Source: Cyanophora paradoxa CCMP329 (lineage: Eukaryota > Plantae > Glaucophyta). From it: DNA of 64,000 bases. The stretch is taken from assembly GCA_004431415.1 (NCBI GenBank), contig QPMI01000117.1, forward strand, positions 310,001 to 374,000. The letters are read 5' to 3'. A program made the position numbers and the translations under genes. The notes beneath the pieces are model-generated. The model saw nothing but the letters and a program-made list of their open reading frames with translations. It did not search any database and was not told the origin of the DNA. Shown one piece after another: positions 1 to 32,126 of this stretch; position 1 is the stretch's first letter; each line of letters starts with the position of its first letter.

Positions 1-137
1 TAATCCGCGAGGACGCGAGCGGTCGCGATGCTTAACAGGATATCGACGATCGCGAGGCCGCAGACGTGGAAGTGGACGCCGGTGCCGGGGCGGCCGAGGG
101 AGTCGGAGAGGTGGGAGAGGGAGGCTTGCATTTGCAT
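1..137 (-). CDS. Small viral membrane protein, 3' partial (MQMQASLSHLSDSLGRPGTGVHFHVCGLAIVDILLSIATARVLAD...)
   Basis: Hand-translated, not in the ORF track. The G-x-P-x-x-G-V-H...AIVD-x-L-L pattern resembles small membrane proteins of nucleocytoviruses (from memory). Confidence 0.6.
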   Translation of the reverse strand, partial: MQMQASLSHLSDSLGRPGTGVHFHVCGLAIVDILLSIATARVLAD

Positions 138-155
138 GTGATAAAGGAAGACAAT

Positions 156-614
156 TTAGACGTTGTACTTCTCCTGGTACGCCTTTTTGCGGATCCAGAG
201 AGCATTGGGATGTGTTGGGTCATAATTGATGCTATCCGTGTCTGGGATGTACCGGCCCTTTTTCTTGTTTGCCTCATCGCCATCCCAGTTGCTGATTGTC
301 ATACTCTCGGGATCCTCGCCATCCACGGTTATGATGAGAGGCTGATCCTTATTCCATCCTGGGTAATCGGGGATGGTGAGGCGGTATACATCCTCCCCAT
401 CCTTGGTTGTTCGGGAGTAGCGGATGACATGCGGGCGCGCCATTCCCTTGACACCACCGGGAAGGGTAGCCTCGTGTGTCGGGTTGTACCACTTGCCCTC
501 GAGGGGGTGCGCGGTCTTTCCGGTGTCGGAGCTGCTTCCCATGAGCAAGAAGGCAGCACCGACACCGACAACAAGGAGGAGGATAACGAGGATGAGGACA
601 GCAGAGCCGGCCAT
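156..614 (-). CDS. Hypothetical viral protein with N-terminal transmembrane anchor (152 aa)
   Basis: ATG-initiated intronless ORF with hydrophobic stretch AVLILVILLLVVGVGAAFLLM; co-oriented with neighbours. Confidence 0.75.
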   Translation of the reverse strand: MAGSAVLILVILLLVVGVGAAFLLMGSSSDTGKTAHPLEGKWYNPTHEATLPGGVKGMARPHVIRYSRTTKDGEDVYRLTIPDYPGWNKDQPLIITVDGEDPESMTISNWDGDEANKKKGRYIPDTDSINYDPTHPNALWIRKKAYQEKYNV

Positions 615-648
615 GGGTGATACAGAGGATGCAAGAAAAATCTAGGAC

Positions 649-1644
649 CTAAGACCTACCGATGGCAGTGTTCAGGGCATCAAATGCCAGCCGTAAATCG
701 TTTGCCTGTGCATCAGTTACGGCAGTTCCCATCACATAGCCGCCATTGCGATTATCCGACGGTCCGTGTATTTCTTCAGCTTCACCTGCAGTTCCTGTAG
801 CGCTTCCATGGGAGGTGCTTACTGTAACACTCCAATCCGAAGGAGTGGAATTTTGTGTACCAGTTACAAGAGTGCATTCCGACTTATTGCCATTTGCATA
901 GTAATAAACAGGTGTACCCAGAGCTCCCTGCGTCATAAGCATCAATCCGACAACCGGCACTGTTTGATTTGTGTTCATCTGTCCACCCCATCCGCAGCGG
1001 TTTGCCGTATTGTCGGTGAGAATGTAGTGGCGCGACCACTCCAACCCCCTGAATACGCCCATGAGTCGGGTTGCGGTTGGGGGCAAAGAGAGGGCAAATA
1101 CCCCAAAGTGGAGGTTCGATCCATTGGTAGTTATCGAAGAAAGTTTGACCCCTGTGTCAATAAACCCACCCGCAGTTACAGAGACCCGAGTCCCCGTGAT
1201 TCCTTGCAGTCTTCCATAGGTACAAGCTGTCGCACCAGTCCCCAAAGCTCTATTCGTGTCTGCAGTTGCTCCCAAAACCGTATTGATCGGACAGAGAGCA
1301 GTATTGATATCGGCACCACAGAAGGTATTCAACCGCCTGAGTGCACCCCATGTTCCGTTTGCAGAGTTAATGAGCGCGTTCACAAAAGCAATATGCGCAT
1401 CCTCCTCTGTGGCGTTCACTCCCGCCCCTCCGTTCGCCGCTATGGCCGCTTTCCAATCTGCAACTCTCTTGTTCGCAAATGATTGTGTTCCTTTCAAGGT
1501 CGACAGCCTAACGACCCCAGTGGTTGGGGCAGGGTACGTTGAGAACCCCAGCAGTTTCGAAAAGCGGAACTTGCCAGTCAACCCCATCATTTTCTGCAGG
1601 GATGACATGGTGATCTTTGTTGTCCCCACGGTCTGGACAGGCAT
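649..1644 (-). CDS. Putative virion fibre/structural protein (331 aa)
   Basis: Intronless, G/T/N-rich. N-terminus (VQTVGTTKITMSSLQKMMG..FRFSKL) resembles that of the adjacent fibre protein. Confidence 0.7.
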   Translation of the reverse strand: MPVQTVGTTKITMSSLQKMMGLTGKFRFSKLLGFSTYPAPTTGVVRLSTLKGTQSFANKRVADWKAAIAANGGAGVNATEEDAHIAFVNALINSANGTWGALRRLNTFCGADINTALCPINTVLGATADTNRALGTGATACTYGRLQGITGTRVSVTAGGFIDTGVKLSSITTNGSNLHFGVFALSLPPTATRLMGVFRGLEWSRHYILTDNTANRCGWGGQMNTNQTVPVVGLMLMTQGALGTPVYYYANGNKSECTLVTGTQNSTPSDWSVTVSTSHGSATGTAGEAEEIHGPSDNRNGGYVMGTAVTDAQANDLRLAFDALNTAIGRS

Positions 1645-1702
1645 GAGGTCATGAATCAGACAATCAAATTATTTTTACGGCAGACTGGACCATCGTACCG
1701 AG

Positions 1703-4188
1703 TCACCTCACAAAAACCATCACCGGGTTGCTGTTCTTGAAGGTTGGATGGAGTGCTCCTTGTGTGTTGAATCCATTTTCACCCCAAAAAATCCAGGTTG
1801 GATCGTGAACGCTCCCGGGTGATATCCATGGATCTTCAGCGTTTAAATTGCGGTGGTAAATATAGGCATTTGTGTTTCTGTCGGCGGTCCCCATGTTCTG
1901 AGATGACCCAGTCATTGTAACTACTTTTCCAGATTCAATCGGGAACGTAATCTGGGACAACGGGAAATAAAACCAGTACCCGGTTGTTGTCCAAAAAAGG
2001 ATCTCCGTCACAGCAGCCCCACCTTGGAGCGTATAATTTCTCCAATACCCACCTGTTGTCGGTATACTCCCCGTGCTACTATAAGTCCCATGCGAATAGG
2101 ATAACCCACTCCAAGCTACTTTCCCTGTATCGCCAGCGAACATCCCCCCCGTAGATGGCTGGGCCGCGAACGACATCCACCCCCCGTTGGCGGTTGCCAT
2201 GTCGCAGTAGATTCTGGCGATCGAACCGTCCGCGAGACGGAACTTGTAGGTTCCACTGGATGCGGACGTATTCACGCCTTTGAGCTGGACCGCATTTTGC
2301 GAATAGCTGACCATAAGAGGAGACTCCTGAGAAGCCCCCCCCTCTACGCCCCCCGTGACCGGCCTGACTACATAGGTATACGGGGTGACGAACAGCGCCG
2401 TGGTGTGTCCGTGAACGGGCTTGCAACATTATCTCCCACCTTTGTGCCGTTTCGGTAAACGTTGTAGGATTCAACTACCCCAGGGGTATGGGCGGTCCAG
2501 CTAACAGAGACATGAGGGGATGACGGCGATGGCTGAGATACAGAGATGGTTGTGCCGTACTTGTTCAGAAGCCACCCTCGAACCGCCTGAACATCGCCGT
2601 TTGAGAGGGGCTTGTCCCACACCATCAGTTCGCGGAGGTCAAGATTCGAGTGATTCGCGCCATCCGCGCCCCTGCTGATCCGCATCGTGGAGAATGTTCG
2701 GTTCGACATTGTGAACGTTCCCGTGTGGCTCTCACGGTCTTCGCCGTTCCAGATGTCAAAGGTGTTTGGCGCCAATCGCAATGCCACAACCTGCCAGGCC
2801 CCGGTGATCGGCCCGGGATCGGCATTGTCGTAAACCACCGACGATCCTACCATGTAGGCAACGTGGGTGGATGCGGTTGTTGTGCTCCGTCCAAAGCTGA
2901 TCGTGTCAGCCGGGCCTGTATTGGCAAAGTAGAACAGGCGCTCGGCATTCAGAGCGGCGCTGTGGTAGAAACGGATGACCATGATGGCCGTGAACCCCCC
3001 ACTGGTTCCGATGTCAAAGGTGCTGGATCCCAGGCTCAAGGAATTCCCGTAGGTCGTGGATGTGGATCCAGGGACGCCAAAACGCACGTAAGGGAACCGC
3101 TCATCTCTCTTGACCACCGGCAGGGTGCACCCCCCCAAGGAGGCCGCCGTGGCATTTATTGTCGTTCCCGTCACCCCGGTCCACGAACTGATGGTGGCAT
3201 CTGCGTCCGTCGATGTCAGCGTGTCAACCTGCAGCCACACCCGCGGGGCAAACATGGCGTTGTTCTCCGCGACGAGCGAGCGCCGGACTGTAAGGACATC
3301 GGTATCAGAGAGGGGCTTGTCGTAGATAATGAGCTCGCGGAGGTCCATATTTGAATTATTTGAGGGGCTTGCCGATGCACTGCCTCCTATGTACATATTC
3401 GCAAAATTCCGGTTCGGAAGTGTTGCAGGGAGGTTAGTTGTCGTGAATGTCATGGTGTCACTGGTCCATACTTCACATCTACCGGGCTTCCATCGAAGTG
3501 CAAAAATCTGCCATGAGCCCGTGATGGCAACGTCTACCCCAGACGTCGCATAGTACCCCGTATTCCCGTTAGTCATGGCATACAATACCGATGCCAAAGT
3601 ACCATTACGAGCAACAAGCCAGTTATCCGGCCCCCCTGCCGCACCGCTAATGAAATCGAACACTCTCTCGAAATTTTGGACCGGAGTGTTAAATTTAACA
3701 ACATAGAAGGCCGTACACCCCCCAGTCTCGGCCAACATGAAATCATAGCTTTTACCCCCCCCCGCCAGATTGACCCCGTTTCCATTGGACGTGCTTGTCG
3801 AGCTAGGGGTCGGATTCCCGAAACGAACATAGAAGACGCCGTCGTTCTTGATGATCCTGGGCATACCCGCCCCCCCCATGGCGTACGGCGTTCCGTCAAG
3901 TGCATTTGACCCAGGCCACGTGGTGATCGGAGCACCACTTGCAAGCGAACTGTCGATTGCGCTCGCCTTCAACCAGAACCGAGGCTGGACCCGCTGGTTG
4001 TTCGCGCTCACAGTCCCGAAGAACCTCTGCAGCCTGATGGTCTCCCCCCGCTTCGGGATGTTCGGGTTGTTCGCGGCGTACCCCCTTGGTGCATCGCGGT
4101 ACAGCTCGGACATGCGTAATTTTGCCCCCATCTTGTACTCTGCTGCGATATCCGAGAACCTCAGGCACCCCGTGGTCTGCAGCACCAT
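1703..4188 (-). pseudogene. Frameshifted virion fibre/adhesin: N-terminal anchor motif + 2 LamG/ConA-like repeats + FN3 + fibrinogen-like domain (~827 aa if repaired)
   Basis: ORF 2368..4188 has two internal repeats (PRFWLKA/PRVWLQV...ERVFDF/ERLFYF...DLRELII/DLRELMV). Removing 2 nt at ~2402-2408 completes an FN3 (SPFTDTTALFVTPYTYVVRPV..GVEG) and joins in frame to ORF 1703..2314, which carries YCDM...GGW. Confidence 0.75.
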
Positions 4189-4251
4189 CTCGGGCCTTTG
4201 TACACAGCGCACACAAAATTTCGCGGGCCATCGGGGTTTTGCAGATCTAAC

Positions 4252-5562: not shown

Positions 5563-5614
5563 GGTTTGATGTATGGCAACATAAAGACAGGTTGATGTTT
5601 AACGCGCTCGAATA

Positions 5615-6224
5615 TCGACCAGGTGCGATACTCACAAGAGCCAAGTCCGGCCCCCGTGTCTATATAAGTCGATGGGGGGGCGGCACCAGCTTGGGAGAAC
5701 CGCCCCTTGTCGACACACGAGCAGCCCCCAGACAGCGGGGGTACGCGCTCGACGGACCAAGGTTCAGACCCCGGGGCAGCCCGCACTTCGACCAGGTGCG
5801 ATACTCACAAGAGCCAAGTCCGGCCCCCGTGTCTATATAAGTCGATGGGGGGGCGGCACCAGCTTGGGAGAACCGCCCCTTGTCGACACACGAGCAGCCC
5901 CCAGACAGCGGGGGTACGCGCTCGACGGACCAAGGTTCAGACCCCGGGGCAGCCCGCACTTCGACCAGGTGCGATACTCACAAGAGCCAAGTCCGGCCCC
6001 CGTGTCTATATAAGTCGATGGGGGGCGGCACCCGCTTGGGAGAACCGCCCCTTGTCGACACACGAGCAGCCCCCAGACAGCGGGGGTACGCGCTCGACGG
6101 ACCAAGGTTCAGACCCCGGGGCAGCCCGCACTTCGACCAGGTGCGATACTCACAAGAGCCAAGTCCGGCCCCCGTGTCTATATAAGTCGATGGGGGGCGG
6201 CACTGGCTTGGGAGAACCGCCCCT
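5615..6224. repeat. Tandem repeat, 173-bp unit, ~3.5 near-identical copies
   Basis: Units start TCGACCAGGTGCGATACTCACAAG at 5615, 5788, 5961 and 6133. Each contains CTATATAAG. Confidence 0.97.
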
Positions 6225-6287
6225 GCCCGCTACCCGAGCCCACGCAACACAGGCAAAACATCGCAGACAGGTAGGTCGGTATTCGAC

Positions 6288-7004
6288 TTACATATCGGTT
6301 TCATCATCATCGGGGTACATTTCGGGGTACACGTAGCGGATCACGCGGGACCCCGAGAGGGGGGCGGCGGCTCGCTTGAGGCCCTCGCTGATTGCCATAG
6401 AGTACCAACTGCACAGGTGCTCGTGGGATGTCGACGGGATGTTCTCGGCCTCGAGATGGAGAAACACGATGGGCTTCTTGAACTCGAGCGACAGGGCGGC
6501 CACACGAAACTGCTCTATTTCGTCAGGGCCCTTGTTGACCATGATTGCCACGATGCGGTCCGCCGTCTCCCGGAGGAGGGTGGGGCTGCACATGAAGCAC
6601 CGAGGACCGCGAAGGTAGGCGCGTTCGAAGAGGTGGCTTGGTCCAAACGAGGTCCCAGCCCGCACCAACACATCGTGGGCCATGTCTCTGTTTCTAAGGA
6701 AGCCGGTATCCTCTTTGTCGATGCACTTGCTGCACACCGCCTTGTCGTACTTGACGGTGACTGAGCGGCACTCGTGGCATTTGAAGCCGCCCATGCATAT
6801 CACACACGTACCCCCGCCGCACGGGGCGCAGAAGTCGAACCCGGGGACCGCCTTCTCATCGCACCCATTTCGACAGGGCTTGCATCTGCGACAGAAGCTG
6901 GTCTTGGGCGACTCGACGTTCCTCCCACAGCCCACTGCACACTTGGTTCGCTTGTTGGTCCCGGTAGGGGTGAAGAGCACGGCCATCTCCGCCTGGGACA
7001 GCAT
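6288..7004 (-). CDS. Cys-rich Zn-finger protein with possible degenerate endonuclease-like C-terminus
   Basis: First ATG at 7004 (the track start at 7079 is not ATG). Many CxxC pairs. C-terminal RIVAIMVN...E..RV...KPIVFLHL resembles giant-virus Zn-finger/endonuclease proteins without the acidic catalytic residues. Confidence 0.65.
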   Translation of the reverse strand: MLSQAEMAVLFTPTGTNKRTKCAVGCGRNVESPKTSFCRRCKPCRNGCDEKAVPGFDFCAPCGGGTCVICMGGFKCHECRSVTVKYDKAVCSKCIDKEDTGFLRNRDMAHDVLVRAGTSFGPSHLFERAYLRGPRCFMCSPTLLRETADRIVAIMVNKGPDEIEQFRVAALSLEFKKPIVFLHLEAENIPSTSHEHLCSWYSMAISEGLKRAAAPLSGSRVIRYVYPEMYPDDDETDM

Positions 7005-7190
7005 CTCTCTCGGATATCGCCGCTTACATGGTGCAGAGAAGGAAGTTAGGCGCCGTTTAACGCGCTCATATACCGACACGGGGCAAAGAACTCAAGACAC
7101 TGAGCCCCCCCCTGGGACTATACAGTTATAGGGGCGGTGATCATCGGCTTGAGAGTTTCGACACGTGCCAGAGTGTGAGATTATGCGCGC

Positions 7191-8006
7191 TCACATCGGG
7201 AACATCGGGCTGCTCGGGTTCCACCACCCTGCCCCCGCACCCCCGCCGTGGTTCCGCAGCGGCCCGAAAGCGATCACGTAGAGGTACGACAGGATCATCA
7301 GCGTCTCCAGCACGATATCGCGCGCGCCCCTCCGCCTCGCCATGTCCATCGCGGTCCTCGCCAGCTCGGCGCCCCGTGAGCGGGGCCGCACGGGCCCCCC
7401 GAAGCCCCGCGGGCCCCCAAGGCGTGTCCGCAGGAGCACACGGGGGCGCAGGCGGATGCTGCGGGGCTCCGCGGGCCTCGCGGGTCCGAGCTGCTCGGAT
7501 GCGGCGGGGTAGTCGGGGTACGACGCCTCGGAGCCCGTTTCAATCAAGGGGAGGGGCTGTGCGGTCACGAGGGTGTACGCCTCGAAAACCTCCACCAGAT
7601 CCCTGATGATGGATGGGCCCGTTGAACCGCGCGACACGTCAAATGCGAGCGAGGCGTCCAGGTGCGTTAACAGGACCTGCACCCCGTTGGGCCACGCAGG
7701 GTTGCCAAAGTCGACCCGCCCGGTCTCCGCTGCCCCCCGCACGAAACCACCGGGGTCCGACAGTCCCTTGGATTGCATGTAAGCGAGCACCTCGGCCGCC
7801 CCGAAAACCATGAGCCGCGAGAAGGCGTCCAGCACCTGCCCCTCGTTGTTCCTTGCCACCTCCCTCTCGGCCTCCTCTACGGTACCAAACCGCGCGATGC
7901 CCCTGTTGTAGGCCGCCATCGCCTGCGTGTACCTCAATGCATCTCCAAAGTCGTCCACGGAGTACATGTCCTGGAAATCAGGGAAGCCTTGGTTGCGCAA
8001 GGACAT
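7191..8006 (-). CDS. Hypothetical protein with C-terminal GNAT acetyltransferase-like motif
   Basis: VRPRSRGAELARTAMDMARRRGARDIVLET...LY...FG matches the GNAT motif A/B layout. Start at 8006 chosen; 8060 is an alternative. Confidence 0.6.
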   Translation of the reverse strand: MSLRNQGFPDFQDMYSVDDFGDALRYTQAMAAYNRGIARFGTVEEAEREVARNNEGQVLDAFSRLMVFGAAEVLAYMQSKGLSDPGGFVRGAAETGRVDFGNPAWPNGVQVLLTHLDASLAFDVSRGSTGPSIIRDLVEVFEAYTLVTAQPLPLIETGSEASYPDYPAASEQLGPARPAEPRSIRLRPRVLLRTRLGGPRGFGGPVRPRSRGAELARTAMDMARRRGARDIVLETLMILSYLYVIAFGPLRNHGGGAGAGWWNPSSPMFPM

Positions 8007-8126
8007 CCTCTCTTTCACCCAGCCTCTACATTTTCTCTCAGCCGCCCAATTACAGTCCATCTGTAACCACCCGCCAGCCCCGCGTTCAGCACCCGCCGAA
8101 CCTTCTCCCCGCATAGAGTACCAAAA

Positions 8127-8552
8127 ATGGAGCCCTTCCGGTCCGCCGGCGACGTCCATTGCCGCTGCGAGGAGTGCGGGGGCGCCCCTCTCGGCCAGCG
8201 CTGCCCCGGGCCCGAACGCCACTGCAGCATGTGCCTCGACGAGGGCGGCGGCCACGAGCCCCTGGACGCTTTGGGAATCCCGACCGGCCCCGAGTTCCGC
8301 ACGTGCGACTGCGCCCTCTGCGACCAGCGGGGCGTCGGCTACTACCCCGACTGCTGCATCGAGGACGGCAGCGACCCCGAGGCCGTCGTCGAGTGCCCCG
8401 AGTGCATGGTTTGCGAGAAAGGAACCTGGACGCACCGCTGCGTCTGCGATGTCTGCAGCGGGTACTGCAAGGACAGCGCGGGAGGCCCGTGCAGGGTCTG
8501 CGTGTACGGGAACGGATCGCACGTGGACTGGTGCGACGGCCCGTGCGGGTAG
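8127..8552 (+). CDS. Very Cys-rich small metal-binding protein (141 aa)
   Basis: A-rich context CCAAAAATGG and >20 Cys in CxC/CxxC motifs. Confidence 0.7.
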   Translation: MEPFRSAGDVHCRCEECGGAPLGQRCPGPERHCSMCLDEGGGHEPLDALGIPTGPEFRTCDCALCDQRGVGYYPDCCIEDGSDPEAVVECPECMVCEKGTWTHRCVCDVCSGYCKDSAGGPCRVCVYGNGSHVDWCDGPCG

Positions 8553-8687
8553 GTAGGGGGTCCCTTGGCGTGTGTCGAGTATTTGTGCGAGTCTGAGTCA
8601 TTTCAACAAACCCGGGGTTCGACAAAACCTAGTTCTGCCAGACCAAGGTTTCCTAATCCTTCTCGGCGTTCGAGTTGCCAAGATATA

Positions 8688-8987
8688 TTATTTCAGCAAC
8701 CCCTTCAGCTCTTGCATGCCATCCAGGAACGCGCGGATGTCCTGTCTCATCCTTGCTTGGACCGCCAGCCTTTGCATGGGCTCCAGCGGCGCCATCGTGG
8801 CCCGCACGGCCCCTAGCACCATCTGCGCATTGCTGTCCATGACCTCCGTGAGCACGAGCGCCTCCATCCCGAAGAGGGGGTTCGTCCGGGCCCGCGCGGC
8901 CACCCGGGGCATCGTGTGGTATCGGTACTCCCAGTGGGCATCCAAAAACTCGTAGAGGAAGAGGTCGGGGCGTGGGTTCAGGCTCAT
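8688..8987 (-). CDS. Hypothetical helical protein (99 aa)
   Basis: ATG ORF MSLNPRPDLFLYEFL..., divergent from the NblA-like gene with a 46-bp gap. Confidence 0.65.
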   Translation of the reverse strand: MSLNPRPDLFLYEFLDAHWEYRYHTMPRVAARARTNPLFGMEALVLTEVMDSNAQMVLGAVRATMAPLEPMQRLAVQARMRQDIRAFLDGMQELKGLLK

Positions 8988-9033
8988 GGTTGCAGACGGG
9001 GCTAGATTTTTGCGCACCCCTTAAAACAGAGAG

Positions 9034-9300
9034 ATGCCCTTCGTCTCCCCCCTCGCCGTCCGCTGTTCCGCGGGATCCCCCGATACCCCCCCACCCCCCG
9101 GCGGCGGCTACGACCCCGCGCGGCTCTCGATGCACCAGGAGGTGCACCTGCGCCAGTTCACCTTTGACGTTGCGCGCATGGACCGGCCCGCGCTCGAGTC
9201 CCTGGCCGTGAAACTCGCCGAGAACCTCTACAAATCCGCCAACATCGCGCAGGCCCTCCACGAGCGGGGCGGCAACTTCTGGCGCGAGGGGACGGACTGA
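9034..9300 (+). CDS. nblA: NblA-like phycobilisome degradation adaptor with putative plastid transit peptide (88 aa)
   Basis: LSMHQEVHLRQFTFDVARMDRPALESLAVKLAENLYKSANIAQAL aligns without gaps to the NblA consensus as I recall it (LSLEQxFxxRxFxxQVxxMSxxQAxxxLVKLYEQM...YQEL). N-terminal MPFVSP...VRC-S resembles Phe-type transit peptides. Confidence 0.65.
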   Translation: MPFVSPLAVRCSAGSPDTPPPPGGGYDPARLSMHQEVHLRQFTFDVARMDRPALESLAVKLAENLYKSANIAQALHERGGNFWREGTD

Positions 9301-9336
9301 GCTGCCCTACCCCCACCCTTTTGCTTTTCGTGGATC

Positions 9337-9898
9337 TCAGCAAGCCGCTATCATTTCATTCATAGGCTCGAGAAACTGCGAGGGGCTGAAGGGGGTATCG
9401 GGGACGTAGCTGGGGTAGAAGGGGAGAGGGGTAGAGACGCAAAAGGCCGGGGGGGTAGGTGCCGGCGTCGGAGGCAGGAAGGGGGTACAGGGGATAGGAG
9501 AGGGGGCGGGGGCGGGAGCGGGGGCGGCCTCCGGGGCGGGCTCCGGGTCCTCGTCCACGAGCGTCTTCCTCACCCGCACCGGCACAAAGGGGACGCGCGG
9601 GGCCTCAAGGGCCTGGCGCTGGCCCGTCCGCGGATCGTAGAGGTACCACGCCACGACGCTCGGGGCCAGCTCCTCCGCGCGGACCTCCCAGGGCGCCACC
9701 GCCTCGTAGGCCACGCACTCGCCGCGGGGGCCCCAGAGGGTCCACATGTACCACTTGTACTCGACCGGCGCAGGAGAGTGGGCGCGGGCCTGAGTTAAAG
9801 TTAGGGGATGGATGGGCAACAGGAGGCGTAGGGGCGCGCACCATATCCATGAGGCCGCTCTCAAAGTCCTCGAAGGCGACGGAAGCGGCAGAGGCCAT
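9337..9898 (-). CDS. Spliced viral hypothetical protein (exons 9898-9842, 9789-9337); Trp-rich core, Pro-rich tail
   Basis: A 52-nt intron at 9841-9790 (GTGCGC...CTAAC...TCAG) joins MASAASVAFEDFESGLMDM in frame to ARAHSPAPVEYKWYMWTLW... Confidence 0.75.
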
Positions 9899-9985
9899 TT
9901 GAAGATGCCTGGAACGAATTCGGGCTGCTTGGAGAATGTGAGGCTGAATGCGATCCGACTCGGGTGTCTATGGGATCCTAGGGTA

Positions 9986-10306
9986 TTAGGAGCCTCGGCC
10001 CGAGGAGCCTAGGAGCCACGGCCCGAGGCGCCTAGGAGCCCGAAAAAAAACAATCATTGGTCCGTCACCGGGGCGTGAGTCACATGTGGTAAGTGCGGCA
10101 CGTGGGTTGCGTGAGTCACGTACGGTAAGCGCGTCACGTGCGTCACCCGAGTCCCGTGCGTCACGCGGGTCAGCTGAGTCACGTGCGGGGGGGGTACGTG
10201 GCCGCCTAGGCAATAATGGGCCGAAATTTCGCCGATAATTGTTTTTTTTCAGGCTCCTAGGCTCCTCGGGCGGTGGCTCCTAGCATCCTCGGCCCGAGGC
10301 TCCTAA
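9986..10306. promoter_or_regulatory. 69-bp inverted repeat (9986-10054 / 10238-10306) enclosing an AP-1/G-box cluster; bidirectional enhancer or origin-like element
   Basis: Arms match 63/69. Spacer has TGAGTCA at 10076, 10112 and 10175, and CACGTG at 10099, 10135 and 10180. Lies between divergent ATGs at 9898 and 10416. Confidence 0.8.
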
Positions 10307-10415
10307 GACCCCCCGCGGACCACAAAACCGGCGCCGGCCCCCAGTCTGGCTCACTCTTGCCTGCCCCAAATTTACGCCGCGCCGCTTCCGAGTCGCTTCC
10401 CTTTGCCGTATAACC

Positions 10416-11304
10416 ATGTCGGACTCTGTCTCCCCCGCCGCCGCCTCCCGCGTCATTGATATCATCGACCTCACCGAGTGCCCCTCCGACGACGAGAAGG
10501 GGCTCGGGCCTGCCATGGCCCTCCCCCGCTCCCGCTCTACCCCCGCGGCGGCCTCCTCTTCCGCCTCTGCCTCCTCTGCCTCCTCTGCCTCCCTTATCCC
10601 CTCCGGCCCCGGAATCGATCCGGAGTTTCCCTTCGAGAAGGAGCCGCCCTGCGACATGAAGGAGAACGCCGAGGTCCGCCGTTTCCCTCTGTCTCACGCA
10701 AGCCCCTCTGCCTCTATCTCACGCGAGCCCTTACGCAGCTCTACATGGCCTGGCTCAAGTTCCGCTGCCCCCACCGGACCGCGACGATCGAAGCGGTCGC
10801 CAAGGAGCTCGGCGAGATGACCGAGGAGGCGCGGCAGGCCACCTTTGCCTTCGTGGACGGGAGGCGCCCCGCCCTTATCGAGGAGGTCGAGGCCATCGTG
10901 ACCGCCGCCGAGGCCGCCTCGATCGTCGTCAAGATGGAGAAGGAGCTCAGCCCGCCCGCTTCGCCCCCCGCCCCCACCGCTGACCCTGAGGTGAGCCCCT
11001 TTGCCTCTACCCTTGCGCCCCCCTCTGAGCCCGTACCCCGTAGATCGAGTCGCCCGAGCCCGAGCCCGAGTCGGAGCCCGAGTCGGAGAACTCGGAGCCC
11101 GAGTCGGAGGACGAGAAGGCGGCAAAGAAGGTGGCCAGGAAGGCGGCCAAGGCGGGCAAGAAGGCGCTCAAGGAGTCGTCGCCCACCAAGAGCGCGCTCA
11201 AGGGCCGGTGGTCGCAGAAGCGGAAGGCCTCCGTCACCTTCCCCGCCGGCACCCCCGACTCGCTCTCCGTAGAGGGCAGCCGCCTCCGCCGCCGCCGCCT
11301 GTAG
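10416..11304 (+). CDS. Spliced viral nuclear regulator-like protein, 256 aa (exons 10416-10673, 10739-10990, 11044-11304)
   Basis: Two phase-0 GT-AG introns restore one frame. Contains SIM-like VIDIIDLTECPSDDE, SUMO consensus VKME, acidic EPES repeats and a basic K/R tail. Confidence 0.8.
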
Positions 11305-11952
11305 ATGTATCGAATTCCTGTCTCGGCCACTTATGCGTCAGTGTTTCTCCGATTTTTTTGCAATGGTAAAGTGCCCCAAATCGTCCAATTCACTCTCTCT
11401 CTCGCCTTTGGAGTCCCTTTCCAACACGAGATCGCTTCGGTCGCAATGGGACACACATCTTCATTTCGTCCCAGGTCAAAGATCGGCAGGTGGTTTGCGA
11501 GAAAGCTTTACACGCCACGGATCATACAGAACCAGATCCTTGAACAAACAATGGCAACCTGCGCAATCACCAGGACTTGGGCACCGATTCGCGACCTCAT
11601 AAACATCATCGACTTTGCGCGCATTGGTCCGGTCTGCTTGGACAAGTGGATGCTCTCCGCCATTTCATGTGGCTGTTCGGACATTGTTATGCATCTCTGT
11701 CCGCTGGGCACACGTGCGTCCGGCCTTGACCTGGAGAATGCCTTTGTTTCTCGCACATCCGATCTACAACGCAAGATCACAGAGAGCGAGATCGCCGGAG
11801 AGATGGGTCTCACAGTGTCTTACAGAGAGGATTCATTTCTGGCGGATTGCGTGGAAATGAGGGTGATTGCTGCATGCCTACAGTTATCACAACAGACAGA
11901 GCAGATATGCCGGACCATGTGCCCAAGAGTTAGCCAGTATATTTTCACGTGA
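11305..11952 (+). CDS. Hypothetical viral protein (true start uncertain)
   Basis: Intronless 215-aa ORF of lower GC filling the gap between genes. Confidence 0.55.
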   Translation: MYRIPVSATYASVFLRFFCNGKVPQIVQFTLSLAFGVPFQHEIASVAMGHTSSFRPRSKIGRWFARKLYTPRIIQNQILEQTMATCAITRTWAPIRDLINIIDFARIGPVCLDKWMLSAISCGCSDIVMHLCPLGTRASGLDLENAFVSRTSDLQRKITESEIAGEMGLTVSYREDSFLADCVEMRVIAACLQLSQQTEQICRTMCPRVSQYIFT

Positions 11953-12185
11953 TTCTTTTCGAATCTCTACAGACACCCTCCCTCCGAGCCCTCTGTAGCC
12001 TCCGAGGGGCTCCAGCGGGGCCGCACGCACGCCGCTGACACCGCTGGGTACGACGGACGGGGTTGTAATCGCGGAAGACCGCCACGACCCGCCAAGTCCA
12101 AAAAGGGGCCCGCCCGGATTCGAGGCGGGTGCAAAGTGGGACCCGCGCGCCACCCGGGGCCCGCGTTCACCGAGGCGGGAACAGA

Positions 12186-12941
12186 ATGCCCGCCGAGATC
12201 GCAGCGGCCTTCTCGGCACTGCGCGTGGCATCGCAGGTTCTCCGCGCAGCCCGCCTGGCCGCCCCAGTCATGTCGCTGCTGCTGCGTGCCCTGTCGGGGG
12301 TCCCGGACGAGGCGAAGATCGTGCGCGGGATCAAGGACGCGGACCCGGCCCTCGTCGCCCCCCAGCTCCGCTGCATCCCGCGCCGGCTCCAGCTCCGGGT
12401 CGCGCGGGCCCTCTGCGGCGACCTCGTGTCCTGCGCGTGCATCCCGAGCGAGCACAGGCCGCACCTGCCCGACCTGTCGCTCCTGTCGCTGGGGCTCGCC
12501 GTGGCCGCCGAGACCCGCCTGCCCCGCGCGAGGGCCGTGGTGGACGCGCTGATCGACCTGGGCTACAGGGCGGGCGCGGACTCGGGCGCCAACCTGGCCG
12601 CCGCGGTCCTCCTGGGCTGGCGGGGCGTGGTGCTGCGGTTGGTGGACGAGTGCGGCGTGCCGGTCAACGGGACCCCCGCCGAGTTCGCGACGGGCGTGCA
12701 GACCGTGCGCATCCTCTCGGGTCTGCGGACGACGCGCGCGGCCGACGTGCCCGCAGTGCTGGACTGCGTGGAGGCCCTCGTGTACGGGCGCGGGATGCGG
12801 CTGTGGCTGCCGGAGCTCGAGGGGAACCTGCGCGCCACCACCGACGAGGGCACCCGCGCGCGCCTCTCCCTGATCGCGCGGTCCCCCGAGCTCGTGTACG
12901 GCCCCCGCGATGTCGCATCCGCCCCGACTGAATGGCAGTGA
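12186..12941 (+). CDS. Hypothetical helical protein with weak ankyrin-like segments
   Basis: ATG at 12186, GC3-rich coding pattern, segment VVDALIDLGY...LAAAVLLGWRGVVLRLVDECGVPVN. Confidence 0.65.
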   Translation: MPAEIAAAFSALRVASQVLRAARLAAPVMSLLLRALSGVPDEAKIVRGIKDADPALVAPQLRCIPRRLQLRVARALCGDLVSCACIPSEHRPHLPDLSLLSLGLAVAAETRLPRARAVVDALIDLGYRAGADSGANLAAAVLLGWRGVVLRLVDECGVPVNGTPAEFATGVQTVRILSGLRTTRAADVPAVLDCVEALVYGRGMRLWLPELEGNLRATTDEGTRARLSLIARSPELVYGPRDVASAPTEWQ

Positions 12942-12993
12942 GAGGCGCGTTCCCCTTGTACACTAAGGAATCTGCACCATTTCACGCAAGCCA

Positions 12994-13287
12994 ATGCCTC
13001 CCATCCATGCCCCGCGCCCACTGACGGACGACGAGCGCCGGCACTTGCTTGAGCGCCTGGATCTGCTGGTTACGAGTGTCTGGAACGCAGCGGCCCCGAT
13101 CGCATGGGCCAAGGATACGGTGGGCAGGAGCGTCCACCAGAACCTACAGTACGTCTACTCGAACCTCTCACAGGAGATACTGCCCCTGATCGATGCTATG
13201 CTAGGCACCTGGTATGCCGAGCGGCTCCCTATCTCCCTGATGTCAGCCCGGGTGGATGCTCGGGGCGGCGACTTTAGCGACCTGTGA
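12994..13287 (+). CDS. Hypothetical viral protein (97 aa)
   Basis: ATG ORF with globular composition; last ORF before the GC-rich terminal repeats. Confidence 0.6.
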   Translation: MPPIHAPRPLTDDERRHLLERLDLLVTSVWNAAAPIAWAKDTVGRSVHQNLQYVYSNLSQEILPLIDAMLGTWYAERLPISLMSARVDARGGDFSDL

Positions 13288-13731: not shown

Positions 13732-18253
<4,522 letters not shown>

Positions 18254-24200: not shown

Positions 24201-27200
24201 TTGAGTGGCGAGGGGCGCCGGCAGTACGGCGAGTGAAGCGCTCGGCATCCAGCAGTCCGGCCGTGTGCCGATTCTCCGTGGCGTTTCAGGCTCACTCCGG
24301 GTGCGTCGACACGTAGAAACTCTATGGCCAGCGCCTGCACCTTTAAATCCGATGCTACCCTCCGTTCTCGCCCTTCGCCCCTCCCCCCCACGCCCGCCTC
24401 GTCTCCCCCTCTCATTTCCTACAGCCTCGTACGATGACGCTCATCCTCGGGCCTGCCCTTTCGGGAAAGGTTGGATTTTTCACTTCCATCCATTAATCCT
24501 TGTACTAATTTGTCTCTCGCAGTCCGCTCTGCTAAGAATTCTCGCCAAGCAACACGGCGAGCTCCGCCGGGCTGGCTTTTTGGACGGCAAGGTTTGGTCT
24601 CTTCATATAAACTTCTTGTTTCGTGCTTGAAGTCTATCTTCGGCTTTTAATAAGCTAAAACCATCAGGTGTATCTGGACGGGAAACCGGCAGCGTCTCGT
24701 CCGGACTTCAACCGTCGGGTCATCTTTGTTTCTCAGCTGGACTCGGTGCACTACCCGCAATTGACGGGTACGCTTCACGCTTCGTTCGCCTTTCTCGTAC
24801 GAGGCGCTAGCGCTCACTCTCCCGCTCAGTGGAAGAAACGCTCCGCTTTGCCGCGCGGATGAAGAGGCCGCACGGCAGCGAGCGCGACAGCGGCGACATC
24901 AGGAGTGCCGACGTTCGCGCGATGAATGCGGGGATGGCCATGCACTTAAGCCGGGTGAATCGCATCCTCATATGTATTTTAGTATACATCTGCTGTCGGC
25001 AAACCGCCTCATTTTTACTGATCGCGATGTTTCGGGCACAGGTAAAGGACTCGATTGTGGGCGACCAGGCCGTTCGAGGAATTTCGGGAGGGGAGAAGCG
25101 CCGACTGAGCGTCGCGGTGCAGCTGGCCGCGGTACGTCAGTAAGAGTTTCCTCTAGTAAAAGAGATCAGATTATAATGTCCAATTCCTAGTAAAAGTTTC
25201 AATAGTCGGACCAGAGAGAAGTCCTCTTGACCAGGCGCCGGCCTCGCAGGGCGCCTATTCCGTCATCCTGATGGACCAGCCCACGGATGGCGCGTCTCGC
25301 TTCGCTTCCGCTCAGAGAGAGTTCGATTCTTCCTTTTAATTCCTGGCTCATATATTGTGTGCAGGGCTGGACGCCTCCGCCTCGCTGGAGCTGTGCCGCG
25401 CGCTCCGGGAGCTCTCGTTGACGGGCGCCTCCGTCCTCTGCAGCCTCCTGCAGCCGTCCTGGTGCGCTCGAAATCGGGACCCTTGTTCTTCATTCGAATT
25501 CCGGCCATTCCTGAGTGTCGTCGACGCTGTCCTCGACCAGGGAGCTCTACGAGATGTTCGACCGGCTCATCCTCCTCTCCAACGGCGACTGTCTTTACAA
25601 CGTGCGCTTTGCTCTGAACCTCGACAGGACTTTGAACAAGCATCCGTTCCAACATGAACATCTGCTTCACAGGGTCCCGGGCGACTGGCCCCAGTCGAGC
25701 ACTTCGAGGCGCACGGGTTCACGAACGCCGAGGGGCTTAGCCCCCCCGATTTCCTGGTGTCTGTGGCCGCGAAAGTCGCGGCAGGCGGCGCGGCCGCCCA
25801 CGACCGCCTGCCGCTTCCGGCGTCTCTGCCGTCGGCTCCCAAAGCAGACCCTCCCGATCAAGCCGACATTTCCGACATTTCCGAGGTTCCGCGTGCGAGG
25901 GCGGAGGCCTTCTCAGCTCGGCGCTCACTTTTTCACAGAGCCGCATCGAGCTCAAGCGGCGGTATCCGAGGCCGTGGCACGCACAGGCAAGCTTAATTAT
26001 ATAAGCGAAGCGACCTTGAGCCATTGAGTCAACCGCGGCTGAGCTTGCGGGTCTGTTCGCGCAGATCAGAATCCTGTACGCGAGGTCAAACCAGCTGCTT
26101 TTCCGCAATCCGAAGCCCGCCGTCACGCGATTCGTCGAAACCGCCGTGATTTCGTTCGTCCTTGCCACGCTTTTCTGTAACGTGCGCAGTTCTTGCCGAT
26201 TTGCGTGTGGGCGATTGCCGCGCCTGACGCTCCCCTCCGCCTTGCAGACGCCGGCGACGATGCAGGGGGCCACGAATCGCATCGCCTTTTTCCAAGTCGG
26301 CCATGCTCTGCTTTTCAACGTGTGCTTCAGTTAGCGCTTCCCTGATCGTTGGCGTCGCTTCAGGCCTCCCTCCTGGTGTGGGCGTTCACCGCTTTGAATA
26401 AAATCGAGCCCAACTACGAGCACCGAAGGTGCGAGCGCGAGCTCGAGCCTGCTCTGATCTTCCCTCGGATTTGACTGATGGAGGATGGGAAGGGTGATGC
26501 ACAAGCAGGCGGAGGAGCGCATGTACCGACCCGACTTGGTGCGCCGCGATCGCGAGCGTGCGCAGCGCTCTGCGGCCCGAGCTAACCGACGTCGCAGTGG
26601 GTGATAGCTCACACGCTCTCGGAGATCCCGCGCCTTTTTTGCGAGGTGCCGTTTAATTTGCAGATCCCGTAGCTAGCTATAGGTTTTTAAAACCGTGTGC
26701 GCGACGCGGCCGCCAGGTTCTCCTCTTCTCTCTCATCGTCTACTTCGCCGTGGGCCTTCAGCCCGCCGGCTTCCGCTTCGGTCGATTCCTCCTCGTGATT
26801 TTTCAGGTCCGAGACGACTGCCAGTGTGTGCTTGCTTGCAACGCCATCGCTTATGATCACACGCGACTCCAGATGACGTTGATTGCCGACGCATCGATTC
26901 TGTGCGTTGCTTATAATTAGCCGTTGGACAGCCGTTGATACGTGCATATCTGACATTGGAGAATTTTGCAGATTTCTCTCGCTCTCATTGCCGCGCAAAG
27001 AGATGTGCTCCTCGCTGGCTCCAGTGGTTCCAGCTATCTTTTTTATTTTTGGTGGCTTTCTCGTGCCCAAGACCGCGCTGCCGTCTTGGTCAGTCCTCAT
27101 TTGCTGGCGGCGCTGCTGCCTAAACGTAAGCTGCTGCTGATAGTCTCGTTCAGGTGGGTCTGGGCGCGCTATCTGAGTTTCTATTCGTATCCGCTCGAGG

Positions 27201-30200
27201 CCCTGGCAATAAATGGTGAGCGTCAAGGCGATGCATGTGCAAACTTTTCGATCTGACACGAGCCCCGCCTGCACTTTTTCTCCCGCGGCCACCGCGGCCG
27301 ACAGAGCTTCTAGATATTCCCCTAAGCGATGTTCCGGGCGGGGGCACGGCGGTGCTGGAAGCGTTCGGGTTCCAGGCTTCTGCGGAGTGGTACGGGTACG
27401 CACACCTACCGCATCGTCTCGGCTTTGAATTCGAATCCGCGTCGGATTCGTTCGACGCCGCGCCGCAGGTACAACGTGCTCGTCTCCTTCGCCTACTGGA
27501 TTCTCTGGCTCGTCGCCTCGATCTTGGCGGCCCTCCACGTCCGGTCGAGGCGGCCGTTCTCCTCCGTTCCCGTGTCGACTTCGGAGCCGGCTGCAGCTAA
27601 CACTGCAGCCAGCCCCGGAGGCTCCAAGCGGTCGCTACCGGTATCCTCTAGATCTGCATCTGCGCTGGCGCCCACCATTCCCACTCGAACGGCTACTCGA
27701 AACAGCGAAGCGTCTGCTACCGCAGTGGATCCCTCCGTTCACGTTCACGTGTCCGTGGATGTGGACGTTCTCGGGCCGGCCCCCGTCTCGTCGGCCCTCA
27801 CTTTCGTCGATGTATCGTACTTTGTGCCTGGCGAGCACGAAGGTATATATATTCCGCCGCGTTCCGCTTGAACCGAGACGGCTCGAGCTTGAACGTTTAA
27901 TTTCACTTCCAGGAGAAACGAAGCGGCTCCTGGACAACGTGACGGGGGTCGTGGAGAGCGGGACGCTGACGGCGCTCATGGGCGAGTCCGGTTCGGGAAA
28001 GACGTGCGTATACATGAACCCCTTTGATTTGAATTTGAATTTCGCTGTTTTCAAAACTCTGCTTTGACGGTTGCGGCCGTGGCCATGCCAGCACCCTGCT
28101 GGATGTTCTTGCGAATCGGAAGACCACAGGAAAGGTGCGGTTTGATCTTTCTCTCGCTCGAAATTTGCTTTGATGCTGAAAGAAACCGACGACCAGGTTA
28201 CGGGCGAGATCAAGCTGAACGGGCGGCCCCGCGACGACAGCTTTAAGCGCGTCAGCGGCTACGTCGAGCAGGTGCGCGTCTCACTTCCGAGGCTTCGCAT
28301 CACCCGCCGAATCTAACGCGTGCGCTATCCCTTAGTTTGATCTGCTCTTCCCGACAATGGTATGCTCTTTGCGTAATTAGATGTAATTATAATGGATATT
28401 GGATGTAATCAGATAAGGGCTTAGGCCTCCGCGCTCGCTGACGGGCGCCGCCCAGACGGTGCGCGAGGCGGTCGTGCTGTCGGCCCTCCTGCGCCTGGAC
28501 GCTCGAACGCCCCGGGGGGACAAGATCGCCGCGGTCCGTACGCGTTGCCCTGCCGCGCCGCAGCAGCGCGGCTCCGCTGCGCGAGCCCATTTCATTTAAT
28601 TTCGGCGAGGCTGATCACGAGAGTCGCAGGCGGAGGGCGCACTAAGAGACCTCGACCTCGAGCCGAGCGGCCGCCTGGTCATCGGGACCCTGCAGGTGCA
28701 TCCGCTCAGCTCTAGATCTAGATCTAGGTCTCTGGTGGCCGCGGCCTCTGATGTTTGGTCCCAGGGCGGAGGCATTCCGGTCGAGGTCGGGCCGGGACTG
28801 CGCGTCCATCATAGACGGAGTTCGCCGGCTAAGTACACTGATCATGAGCGCGCGCGCAGATGCGAAAGCGGGTCTGCATCGCCATGGAGCTCGTCCCTCG
28901 ACCGGCCATCCTCTTCCTGGATGAGGTTCGACTCGCTTTTTAGAACAGAAATACAAACGCGTTCAGCTGTAGTACTAGTACTGACTGGGGCGACTTCTCT
29001 ACATTAAACAGCCGACCACCGGGCTGGACTCGACTGCCGCGCTCCGCATCGGACAGGTGGCCTGGAATCGGCGCTGAATTTGATCGCAGAGCACTAGCCC
29101 GCCCGCGTGAAGCCTGCAGCTGACTGCCCGTTGCTCGCAGCTTCTGCGGCGCATCGCCGGCGCCGGACAGGCCACTGTCGCCACGATGCAGTGCGCTTTT
29201 ATAGTTACCTTGTCTGCCCATGTCTGATCCCGATCTGCTGGACGCGCCCCGACCTGCTGTCTTGCTTCGCAGCCAGCCGTCCGGCCAGCTGTTCGGTCTC
29301 TTCGACCGGCTGATCCTACTCAGAAGCGGAGGCGTCCCCATCTACTCCGGTGCGTGCGCGAAGAAAGGATATATAGAAGCCTGGCGAATATATATGTAAT
29401 ATTAGTAGAAGCTCCCGGCTATTCGCGGCCGAATGTTGAAATCGCGACGTCGACTCGCCGCATGCAGGGGAGCTTGGACAGCGTGGCAGCGGATTCTTCG
29501 CGCACCTCGCGACCCTCGGTGCCGCCGGCGCTGCCGCCGTCCGGCCATGCATGGTCCGAAGCTTGTTGTAATTCCCGTGGCGCAGGATTCGAGCTCCCGC
29601 CCTTCAAGAACGCGGCGGACTGGGCCATCGAGATCGCGGGGGGGCGGGCCTTCGAGGCGGGCGCTGGCGCCGGCGCCGGTGCCGGCGCCGCCGCGGAGTG
29701 CGACGCGGACGTCGACGCCGTCGCTGCTTCTTTCCGCGAGGGTCCCCCAGGGCGCCGGCTCCGCGACCGCGTCGCGGCTCTGGACGCGCAGCGTGCGCCA
29801 GCCAGCGCTCCTTCCTTATAATCAAAAGCTTCGCCTTTTTGAAAAGACTGCGTTTCGCAGTGGTCTCCGCGGGGCCCGCCCCCGCGCCGGAACGGCCGCC
29901 GTTCGCCCGCCAGGCGCGCGCGGCCCGCGGCTTCTCGCCCTCGCTCTCCTGTTCGAGCCCTGGGCGTCCGGCCCGCTCAGGTCGCGATTCTCGCGGGGCG
30001 CAAGCTTCGCTGGCTCTGGCGCGAGCGCGAGACCCTCGCCGTCCGCGTCCTCAGGCCCGCGCGCTGTCCCCCATCCATCGACTCTGCCCGCTCCCACATT
30101 GCTGCTCTTGTTGAATACTGCCCCTCCGCAGCAACGTCCTTGTGGCCGTCATCGCCGGTACCGCGTGGTTCGCTTTCGAGGCCTTTAGATCTGGCCTTCG

Positions 30201-31850
30201 GATTCCGTGCCTCCGTGAGCGGCCGGTCACCAGGTACCAGCTGGGGGGGGACCAGCCCGGCGCCCGCCTCCGCCTCTCCGCCCTCTACGCCCTCACGCTC
30301 TACTTCTACTTCCGGTGTCTACTTTGCTTACTTACTTCCGGTTACTTCTGATTATGACCCGCGAAATTTCAGAGCCATGGCCGAGATCACGATGCACTGC
30401 GCCCTCCGTGAGGTCTACTACCGCGAGAAGAGCCAGGGTGAGCGAGCGAGGGGCGCGGGCCGCCCGGCTCGAGTTCGCGGGCTCTGCAGGCAGCTGACGC
30501 CGCGTGCCAGGGATCGTCTCCCCTCTCGTTCAGCAGGTCGCCGCCCTAGATCTACGATCCGGCCTTCGATATCGAAACGTATTAATCGGCCGTCGCGCAG
30601 GTGTCCGACTTCGCGATCAACGCCTCGTTCGCCCTCGCCAACACGGTCCTCTTCTGCGTCATCATGTACCCCCTCGTCGGCTTCCAGCTCTCAGGGTGCG
30701 GAGTATTAAACAATCGCCCTCTAGCTCTCTACCGATAAAAATGATCTGCTGCGTTCACACCTCGCGATCGCCTAAACCTTCTTCGAATTCTGATCTGCTG
30801 CGTTCCACTCCGCCTGATCATGAATGAATTCAGGAACCTGGCGTACGCCCTTCTGGTCTGCTGCGCGTGGACGCTCGCCTGCTCCTCCTTCACGGAGCTC
30901 CTCGCCCTCGCCCTCCCCGTGCGCTTCGCCACTCACCCTCGCCGTCTCGAGCCCGCCCTCACCGCCCCCCACGGCAGATCGCCCCCATGGCGATGTCGGT
31001 GGCGAGCGGCGCCCTCGCCCTCGGCGCCTTCTTCACAGGCTTCATGGTGCGTGAACGCGCGCCCCAAAGAACAATCTGAGAATAATCGAAGCCCCGTCGC
31101 CGTCGTTGCTCGGCGCCTTCGCCGTCTCCGTTCGCCTGAGCGGGCGCGGCGCGCGGCGCCTGCGCAGATGCCGGGGCCCGACATGCCCAGGGCCTACGTC
31201 TGGCTCTACTACCTCCTCTGGTTCCGGTGCGCTACGAATCGCATGTTGATTTTTTCGAATCGCATTAGAGATTTAATTTAGATCTGAGACTAAACCTGGT
31301 CTCGCTCTCGAAATCACGAGTTCGGATCCGGAGCCGGTCTGATCGACGCCCGGCCGCACCGCCAGGTACCCCTTCGAGGGCCTCGCGGCGAGCGAGCTGA
31401 GCGGGCTCGTCTTCTCCGACTGCCCCCCCGCGTGCGCCGGCGTCGCCGAATTGACATCGTGTTCTAGATCTCAAGCCTACAGCTGATAATAATCAAGAGG
31501 GTCGTTCTAGATCTGAAGCCTAATTATATATTACCAAATTCGTTCGAGCTGATCATGAAGGCCCGCGCTCTCCGTGTTTCTCTGATGCTGCCGCAGCCTG
31601 GCCGCCGCCGGGGCCTGCTTCCCCGACGGCGCCGCCCTCCTCGCACGCTACGACCTCCGCCCCGACCGCCAGGTTCGACCCCCGACGGATCGAATTATGT
31701 GGGCGCCAAAATGAACGTCGAGCATGCCTCACGCTCGGCCCCTTTTCATTTGTTCAGTGGGCGAACGTCGGGATCCTGGCGGGGTACTGGCTTGCCTTCG
31801 AGGCGCTCAAGGGCCTCGCCCTGCACCGCATCAACCACCTCCGCCGCTGA
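21230..31850 (+). CDS. Patatin-like phospholipase fused to full-size PDR/ABCG transporter (many exons)
   Basis: Patatin motifs: ILAIDGGG.RG, FDYVAGSSIGG, ATSAAP, FIDG, NNP, LNLGTG. NBD1: GPALSGKS, GISGGEKRR, LMDQPTDGLD. NBD2: GESGSGKT, FLDEPTTGLD. Ends INHLRR-stop at 31850. Confidence 0.85.
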
Positions 31851-32126
31851 CTTTGCTAGTACCAACCGATTATGTATCCCAAATCATTGAATCTTGCAAA
31901 CCTTAATGATTACTCTTTCTCGACTTCGCACGCCTTTTTCTATGGCCAGCCTCGGCCGCCACTCCTCGCCCCTCTTTCCCACGCCCCCTCCCCCCCTCCC
32001 CCTCTCCTCCCCGCCCCCTCTCCCCTGCCCCCGCCCCCTTCCCCTCCCCTCCCCCCGCCCCCCCGCCCCCTTCGCCCCTCCCCTTGCTCCCCCTTCGGTC
32101 GAAAATTCAAGCGAAAATTTGGAGAC

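Follow-up and report, generated by a model that had tools for sequence, protein, structure and literature searches.

Can a virus of a eukaryote reach the antenna of its host's plastid by means of NblA, a protein known from cyanobacteria, cyanophages and red-algal plastid genomes (PMC12695635, PMC4810238, PMC9794624)? The question is raised by a short open reading frame (ORF) in a 64,000-nucleotide stretch of the glaucophyte Cyanophora paradoxa CCMP329 (contig QPMI01000117.1, positions 310,001 to 374,000; hereafter the window), an organism with phycobilisomes and a genome given as 99.94 Mb, 67.6% GC, with a mean intron of 86 bp and likely haploid (PMC6704402). Its predicted product, P0001, is NblA-like and carries an N-terminal leader. 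The proposal that a distant NblA homologue, encoded in a likely viral segment, is imported into the plastid through this leader, dimerises, binds phycobiliproteins and likely promotes dismantling of the phycobilisome is, taken as a whole, evenly poised between acceptance and doubt. An initial interpretation made from the letters alone (the sequence-only reading) had been similar, and of its components the NblA homology, the likeness of the leader to a transit peptide and the virus-like context have gained support, but the loss of a glutamate and a phenylalanine near-invariant in the family speaks against a simple adaptor.

The uninterrupted 88-residue frame of that reading is borne out by translation and by GC of 0.70, 0.51 and 0.90 at codon positions 1, 2 and 3, the profile of a coding frame. 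It is spanned by a contig from DNA run X2 that shows 0 differences from the window over 6174-10025, so an assembly error is not its source, and at least 95% of sampled words from 6200-14600 are present in 16 of the 24 sequencing runs listed, all with the same organism label. In three runs guessed to be RNA no contig spans the ORF, which is not taken to bear on expression. Comparison with read contigs covered only positions 1-10400, and linkage of the segment at its right junction rests on the assembly of the window.

Among 24,736 Pfam models the sole match of P0001 is NblA (PF04485; expectation value, E, 0.014; 16.2 bits), which is also the only Pfam match (E 0.068) of P0003, a metagenomic homologue described below. 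On a separate profile of 50 NblAs, built without either protein, P0001 and P0003 score 13.5 and 12.7 bits, and none of 5,000 shuffles of each reaches the real score, the best being 8.6 and 7.1 bits, respectively; P0001 reversed gives 2.5 bits. P0001 is the top-scoring of 1,193 window frames on the NblA profile. Profile-profile comparison by hhalign gives a probability of 87% against 7 NblAs and 80.5% against 48. The profile check envisaged at the outset (HMMER/HHpred) has been run with NblA as the only family found, at scores below cut-off, and the initial figure of about 13 identities in 45 proved exact in ungapped comparison of residues 31-75 with Nostoc NblA (1OJH), to which the match of P28 with P4 can be added. 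With ESM Atlas features, a lead only, the top three rows are NblA-carrying viral clusters (0.80-0.82). A weak resemblance between residues 12-42 and an LHCI chain (E 0.51) was discarded as low-complexity.

Structural predictions are of the same tenor. A template-free model of P0001, made from two sequences, has helices at residues 33-47 and 51-78, and in a search of 48,161 solved chains with it ranks 1-3 are taken by the three NblA structures, i.e. 1OJH from Nostoc PCC 7120 (Z 5.2, root-mean-square deviation 2.0, 52 residues aligned), 2Q8V from T. vulcanus (4.8, 2.4 and 52) and 3CS5 from S. elongatus (4.4, 1.2 and 48); it is the rank, and not Z, that constitutes the evidence. For residues 26-84 a homodimer is predicted, with a score of 0.65 versus 0.01 for the best of three controls, at least 85% agreement of contacts between runs and a predicted local distance difference test value (pLDDT) of at least 79. 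The mark applied is reached by 21 of 30 solved homodimers and by 0 of 23 monomers, though, NblA dimers being already solved, the pass may reflect memory. The comparison with NblA structures suggested from the letters has, as far as prediction goes, turned out in favor of NblA.

Weighing against all this, both proteins (P0003 at 14.1 bits) are under the curated Pfam cut-off for NblA of 25 bits, P0001 is without a match in NCBIfam or PHROGs, its model has a mean pLDDT of only 53.5, and unrelated helical hairpins come within about 1 of the NblA chains in Z-score (the chain at rank 4 has 4.3). Sub-threshold scores, low Z and low pLDDT, together with a Foldseek search of BFVD that gave nothing at E 0.001 or better, are what coincidence, or convergent evolution of a short hairpin of helices, could yield. 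Such an origin of the likeness is very improbable indeed, with profile, language-model features, fold rank and dimer prediction agreeing on NblA, and doing so for two sequences. By profile, fold and predicted dimer P0001 is a distant NblA homologue.

P0003 is one of two matches that residues 22-88 of P0001 gave when scanned against 1.84 billion representatives. The other, P0004, is from a fish and repetitive, and was set aside as a homologue. P0003 (90 residues, E 2e-11) is an uninterrupted called gene on one 6,064-bp ENA metagenome contig, and is identical to P0001 at 31 of 51 core positions and at 7 of 13 in the head of the leader; the Pro/Gly linker between is not conserved. A two-sequence profile in a word-indexed search recovered P0003 only, and a word-indexed search with P0001 alone found no homologue. 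No loci related to the pair were found in IMG/VR or JGI metagenomes and no significant match to it in GenBank phages, and in a family-profile search none of the best 120 of 1,468 matches starts with the Phe-leader pattern given below. As a separate observation, a 'hypothetical' ORF of Nodularia phage vB_NpeS-2AV2 (L192:61-237) scores 25.7 bits on the NblA profile, and nine Nodularia phage records match it at about that level.

How much of what NblA does can P0001 do? Judged by conservation in 48 cyanobacterial NblAs, P4, L7 (98%), S/T8, Q11 (100%), L15, R16, F18, V22, M25, N46 and L51 in NblA numbering are kept, as P28, L31, S32, Q35, L39, R40, F42, V46, M49, N70 (67%) and L75 of P0001, respectively, and R51 of P0001 is a further kept position. 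In the N-terminal L-S/T-L-E-Q-x-F motif, L, S/T, M/L and Q persist. What tells against a fully NblA-like role is that E10 (100%) is H in P0001 and T in P0003, that F13 (98%) is V and T, respectively, that K53 has become the acidic E77 in P0001, and that the NblA of cyanophage S-TIP37, with 34 bits on the same profile, keeps both E and F. Alignment hereby confirms two caveats entered earlier, namely E-Q-x-F being read as H-Q-E-V and the C-terminal Lys being out of register. L51 and K53 (L75 and E77 in P0001, I and R in P0003) are phycobiliprotein-binding residues of NblA, and the S-TIP37 protein has L64 and T66 at these positions (PMC12695635); since it is functional with T66, E77 counts for less as an objection than does the loss of E and F. 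The E10 and F13 positions fall outside the predicted dimer interface, and the N-terminal motif that includes them has been described as the ClpC site (PMC4103541). With a score below the curated cut-off and an altered E-Q-x-F motif, P0001 is filed as NblA-like and not as a canonical member.

The loss of E and F in both homologues speaks against simple ClpC-adaptor function, and leaves room for a protein of opposite sign: imported, and binding phycobiliproteins or pairing with host NblA without recruiting ClpC, it would be a decoy that protects the antenna and maintains photosynthesis during infection. Retention of the dimer core, N70 and L75, while near-invariant residues external to the interface are replaced in both homologues, is in keeping with this, as is the basic residue of P0003 at the K53 position. 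However, known viral NblAs promote degradation (PMC12695635), the E and F changes may be co-evolved with host NblA and ClpC, and a model of loosening independent of ClpC exists (PMC4103541). A decoy is thus doubtful, while being the alternative most deserving of attention, and the preferred reading remains promotion of dismantling. Judging from the residues, the protein may loosen or shield phycobilisomes instead of recruiting ClpC.

Either activity presupposes entry into the plastid. The leader of about 30 residues initially proposed is present, but occupies about 25 ahead of the NblA-aligned part (28 in P0003). Its head, with M-P-F-V and R-C-S identical, is roughly as conserved as the core; F3-V4 is common to both proteins, a Pro is at position 6 or 7 and others are in the linker, and V-R-C-S or L-R-C-S at residues 9-12 fits the published cleavage motif (V at -3 and A at -1, or R at -1) only loosely. 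In Cyanophora transit peptides, Phe is within the first 10 residues in 49 of 77, Val is enriched there and prolines follow; by a by-eye count about 11 of the 77 starts have F-x-x-P, one starts M-P-S-F-V, and the transit-peptide table includes three MAF-starting proteins with N-termini at positions 14-16 (PMC4510345). Phe3-Val, an early Pro, prolines at about 10-20 and, loosely, a V/R/A-type motif are features that P0001 shares with the Phe-motif transit peptides of this organism (PMC4510345, PMC2222254). The pattern M-x(1,2)-F-[VAIT]-x(1,3)-P is present in 4 of 264 window ORFs, P0001 included, and in 0 of 120 canonical NblAs.

A real difficulty is length, 25 or 28 residues against a median of 63 (PMC4510345), and composition, the leader being Pro-rich and Ala-poor with one basic residue. 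Since the head recurs in an independent homologue and looks like glaucophyte starts, it has presumably been selected, atypical length notwithstanding, and to that extent the transit-peptide-like leader of the sequence-only reading stands. On these features the leader would import P0001 into the plastid. The contrary case, which is unlikely, is that of an NblA-derived protein which stays outside the plastid or has ceased to act on phycobilisomes, the 12-residue head having a different use (targeting to another organelle, as a degron or for lipidation) or the host lacking phycobilisomes. Beyond the shortness of the leader, its pattern occurs by chance in 3 of 263 other window ORFs, and nblA is also found in Prochlorococcus, which is without phycobilisomes (PMC12695635). 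Set against this are the retention of the leader head in two diverged homologues and the coherence of a combination in which a Phe-motif leader, a phycobilisome-related fold and glaucophyte-like genome statistics occur together.

Is the gene viral? The coordinates of the genes and elements discussed are in the table.

Table. Features of the NblA-like locus, the surrounding virus-like segment and the flanking host DNA (window coordinates)
Feature	Coordinates	Strand	Basis or remark
NblA-like gene (P0001), intronless ORF, 88 residues, N-terminal leader	9034..9300	+	translation, profile, fold
Head of the leader (residues 1-12, with Phe3-Val4, Pro6 and V-R-C-S), predicted start of a plastid transit peptide	9034..9069	+	conserved in P0003
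Pro/Gly-rich linker, residues 13-25	9070..9108	+	no secondary structure in model; not conserved with P0003
NblA-like helix-loop-helix core, residues 26-78 (predicted homodimer)	9109..9267	+	model, fold search, alignment
10-mer CTAGATTTTT, candidate promoter element	9002..9011	+	32 nt before the ATG of the NblA-like gene
Second copy of 10-mer CTAGATTTTT	636..645	-	31 nt before the ATG of ORF 156-614
Gene-dense, mostly intronless virus-like segment	1..13790	.	78% coding over 1-13300; left end outside window, right end approximate
Edge-cut ORF, homologue of small membrane protein on giant-virus contigs	3..137	-	profile
152-residue protein, N-terminal hydrophobic anchor	156..614	-	no family match
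331-residue ORF	649..1644	-	no family match; model pLDDT 35, unusable
Fibrinogen-like YCDxxxxGGGW domain protein	1703..2314	-	NF040941, 30.5 bits, cut-off 30
606-residue protein with two Laminin_G_3 stretches	2368..4188	-	E 4.8e-7, above cut-off
99-residue ORF, divergent from NblA-like gene over 46-nt spacer	8688..8987	-	no family match
Segment gene with two predicted host-type spliceosomal introns (10674-10738, 10991-11043)	10416..11304	+	own prediction
ABC-transporter-like host gene (family by eye, ATP-binding motifs)	24434..31851	+	40 predicted GT-AG introns, mean 84.5 nt

The segment is likely viral DNA in a nuclear genome. Its edge-cut ORF scores 30.1 bits on a profile of a 22-member family (best of 3,000 shuffles, 9.5), and 10 of the 26 IMG/VR contigs with this family, which were chosen with a motif, carry GVMAG names; the two that were scanned encode Pox_A22, Erv1, TBP, DUF5754, DUF5771 and DVNP. 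In the 408 kb of these 26 loci the other 15 of 16 segment ORFs, and any NblA, are without a match. (The membrane-protein family itself, of about 80 residues and represented by L161-L190 on giant-virus contigs, is without a proper Pfam model.) The laminin-G protein would be fibre-like; an Atlas search with its first 75 residues gave scores of at most 0.77. Exact-word scans, which detect close relatives only, of four other segment ORFs and of the edge ORF alone found nothing, and no tRNAs were found. The 10-mer, found post hoc, has two copies only in the 64 kb, and being common to the NblA-like gene and ORF 156-614 it ties the former to the segment. The two spliceosomal introns fit a nuclear setting and disfavor a phage contaminant.

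A viral identity is opposed by the lack, among the segment ORFs scanned, of any capsid, packaging ATPase, polymerase or integrase gene. None of the Nucleocytoviricota hallmarks sought (major capsid protein, A32 ATPase, family B polymerase, VLTF3) is among the ORFs scanned of a segment that exceeds the window, and genes of Polinton-like viruses (capsid proteins, packaging ATPase, integrase or recombinase) are also absent from the window. The 'viral segment' of the sequence-only reading has gained a giant-virus-type gene and a supporting gene density, but no hallmark gene within the window. A further alternative is that P0001 is an NblA that belongs to the host and is encoded in its nucleus, or that the segment represents a host island, or else a mobile element that is not viral. 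Besides the missing hallmark, the host-like GC at third codon positions (0.90), the intron-bearing gene within the segment and the cellular cyanobacterial identity of the best pairwise matches, ahead of the three phage NblAs tested, would suit this. Yet the gene is intronless among dense intronless ORFs, where the host has about one intron per 100 coding nucleotides, it shares the 10-mer with a segment gene, its neighbors are of giant-virus-type, fibrinogen-like and laminin-G character, and the one homologue recovered, from a metagenome contig of 6 kb, is likewise called as a gene without interruption. A host or non-viral origin is quite improbable, and the segment continues to be regarded as likely viral.

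Some features relate to the extent and copy number of the element. X2 depth is uniform at about 100 for the segment contigs (1-10400), which show no differences, against 34-56 for unrelated contigs with short matches; depth is not copy number, but possibly there are two identical, recently duplicated copies. The 436-residue Cys-rich ORF at 4252-5562 has a diverged relative, about 80% alike in pieces, on a 1,430-nt X2 contig of depth 52, a hint of a family of related elements. Another X2 contig, extending 1,731 nt left of the window, joins position 1 to 10243 on the opposite strand over 39 letters. This is a possible terminal inverted repeat, and if it is one there is little room for capsid or polymerase genes. 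Two other arrangements are noted in their own right. Inverted arms at 9977-10017 and 10252-10292 flank a spacer rich in GAGTCAC and CACGTG between divergent genes, and to the eye 9977-10292 looks like a bidirectional eukaryotic promoter; at 5595-6252, upstream of ORF 4252-5562, a unit of 172-173 nt is repeated in tandem about 3.5 times, nearly without change.

Compared with endogenous algal viruses, both Polinton-like and giant, the segment shares dense, mostly intronless ORFs, a laminin-G fibre-like protein and integration in an algal genome; it differs in that no hallmark gene is within the window. By one reading of a row of Table S6 there are 156 Polinton-like viruses in glaucophytes, and the available parts of that paper and of its two supplementary files are without mention of NblA (PMC12220804). 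Silencing methylation is enriched at the viral genes of Cyanophora (PMC12344493), and the available text of the Cyanophora genome paper does not mention nblA (PMC6704402). In the host parts of the window that are gene-rich, GC is 64-69%, and in 15 of the 16 runs containing the segment words the contigs add up to 93-124 Mb. Also there are LINE-like (long interspersed nuclear element) retroelement remnants with weak RVT_1 and zf-RVT matches and a poly-A end (39697-43550), and two duplicated host or mobile pairs, one 29.7 kb apart (18975-19480 and 48681-49170) and the other 4.0 kb apart (59002-59854 and 63025-63870).

With cyanobacterial NblA, P0001 has in common the predicted helix-loop-helix and homodimer and the equivalents of L7, S8, Q11, R16, F18, V22, M25 and L51; it departs from it in the E10 and F13 replacements, in E for K53, in its sub-cut-off score, in the 25-residue leader and in residing in a eukaryotic nuclear genome. 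Cyanophage NblAs (Ma-LMM01 and S-TIP37; PMC12695635, PMC4103541, bioRxiv 10.1101/2024.07.03.601984) are also virus-carried, do not keep K53 and by pairwise score are at a distance from canonical NblAs similar to that of P0001 (best 78 versus 79), but their hosts are bacterial, no import is needed and L-x-L-E-Q is kept. They are among the weakest pairwise matches of P0001 (ranks 156-163 of 173). Red-algal NblA (Ycf18) is likewise in a eukaryotic, phycobilisome-bearing plastid, but is plastid-encoded and lacks a transit peptide (PMC4810238, PMC9794624). As to origin, pairwise scores favor cellular NblAs over the three phage NblAs, and Atlas features favor phage clusters; the profile used to choose the 120 database NblAs of the pairwise set included P0001, a bias in favor of those sequences, and about 50 alignable columns at 20-30% identity cannot place the origin.

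If the preferred reading is correct, infection or reactivation would lead to synthesis of a virus-encoded precursor in the cytosol, the Phe head of which would engage the Omp85/Toc75 translocon, through which a Phe-dependent import route has been described (PMC2222254), with trimming of the leader to follow. The dimer would then bind phycocyanin rods via its long C-terminal helix (L75 corresponding to Nostoc L51), and disassembly of the rods would free nitrogen or lower excitation to the virus's benefit, as with cyanophage NblA. Given that the exposed N-terminal E and F are replaced, dismantling may involve loosening of rods by structural mimicry or utilize a co-evolved contact with host ClpC.

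The broader proposition, that DNA viruses which integrate in the glaucophyte nucleus carry NblA with a host-type Phe transit peptide to dismantle or shield the phycobilisome, is probably correct. In the literature covered (titles and starts of abstracts, subscription journals being outside its scope) neither an NblA encoded by a virus of a eukaryote nor one bearing a transit peptide was found, and the string 'eukaryot' is absent from the available text of the paper on viral NblA, which recently showed that this protein cuts host photosynthesis in marine cyanobacteria (PMC12695635). If true, an antenna-degradation adaptor would for the first time be known from a eukaryotic virus, and the antenna strategy would extend across the endosymbiotic divide, with a virus outside the plastid utilizing the import code of its host. 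The 88-residue protein also presents a naturally occurring departure from the conserved N-terminal motif, with which ClpC-adaptor and structural-mimicry models of NblA action could be told apart. For glaucophytes, the gene is a lead to phycobilisome degradation and possibly a pointer to an undescribed nucleus-encoded NblA.
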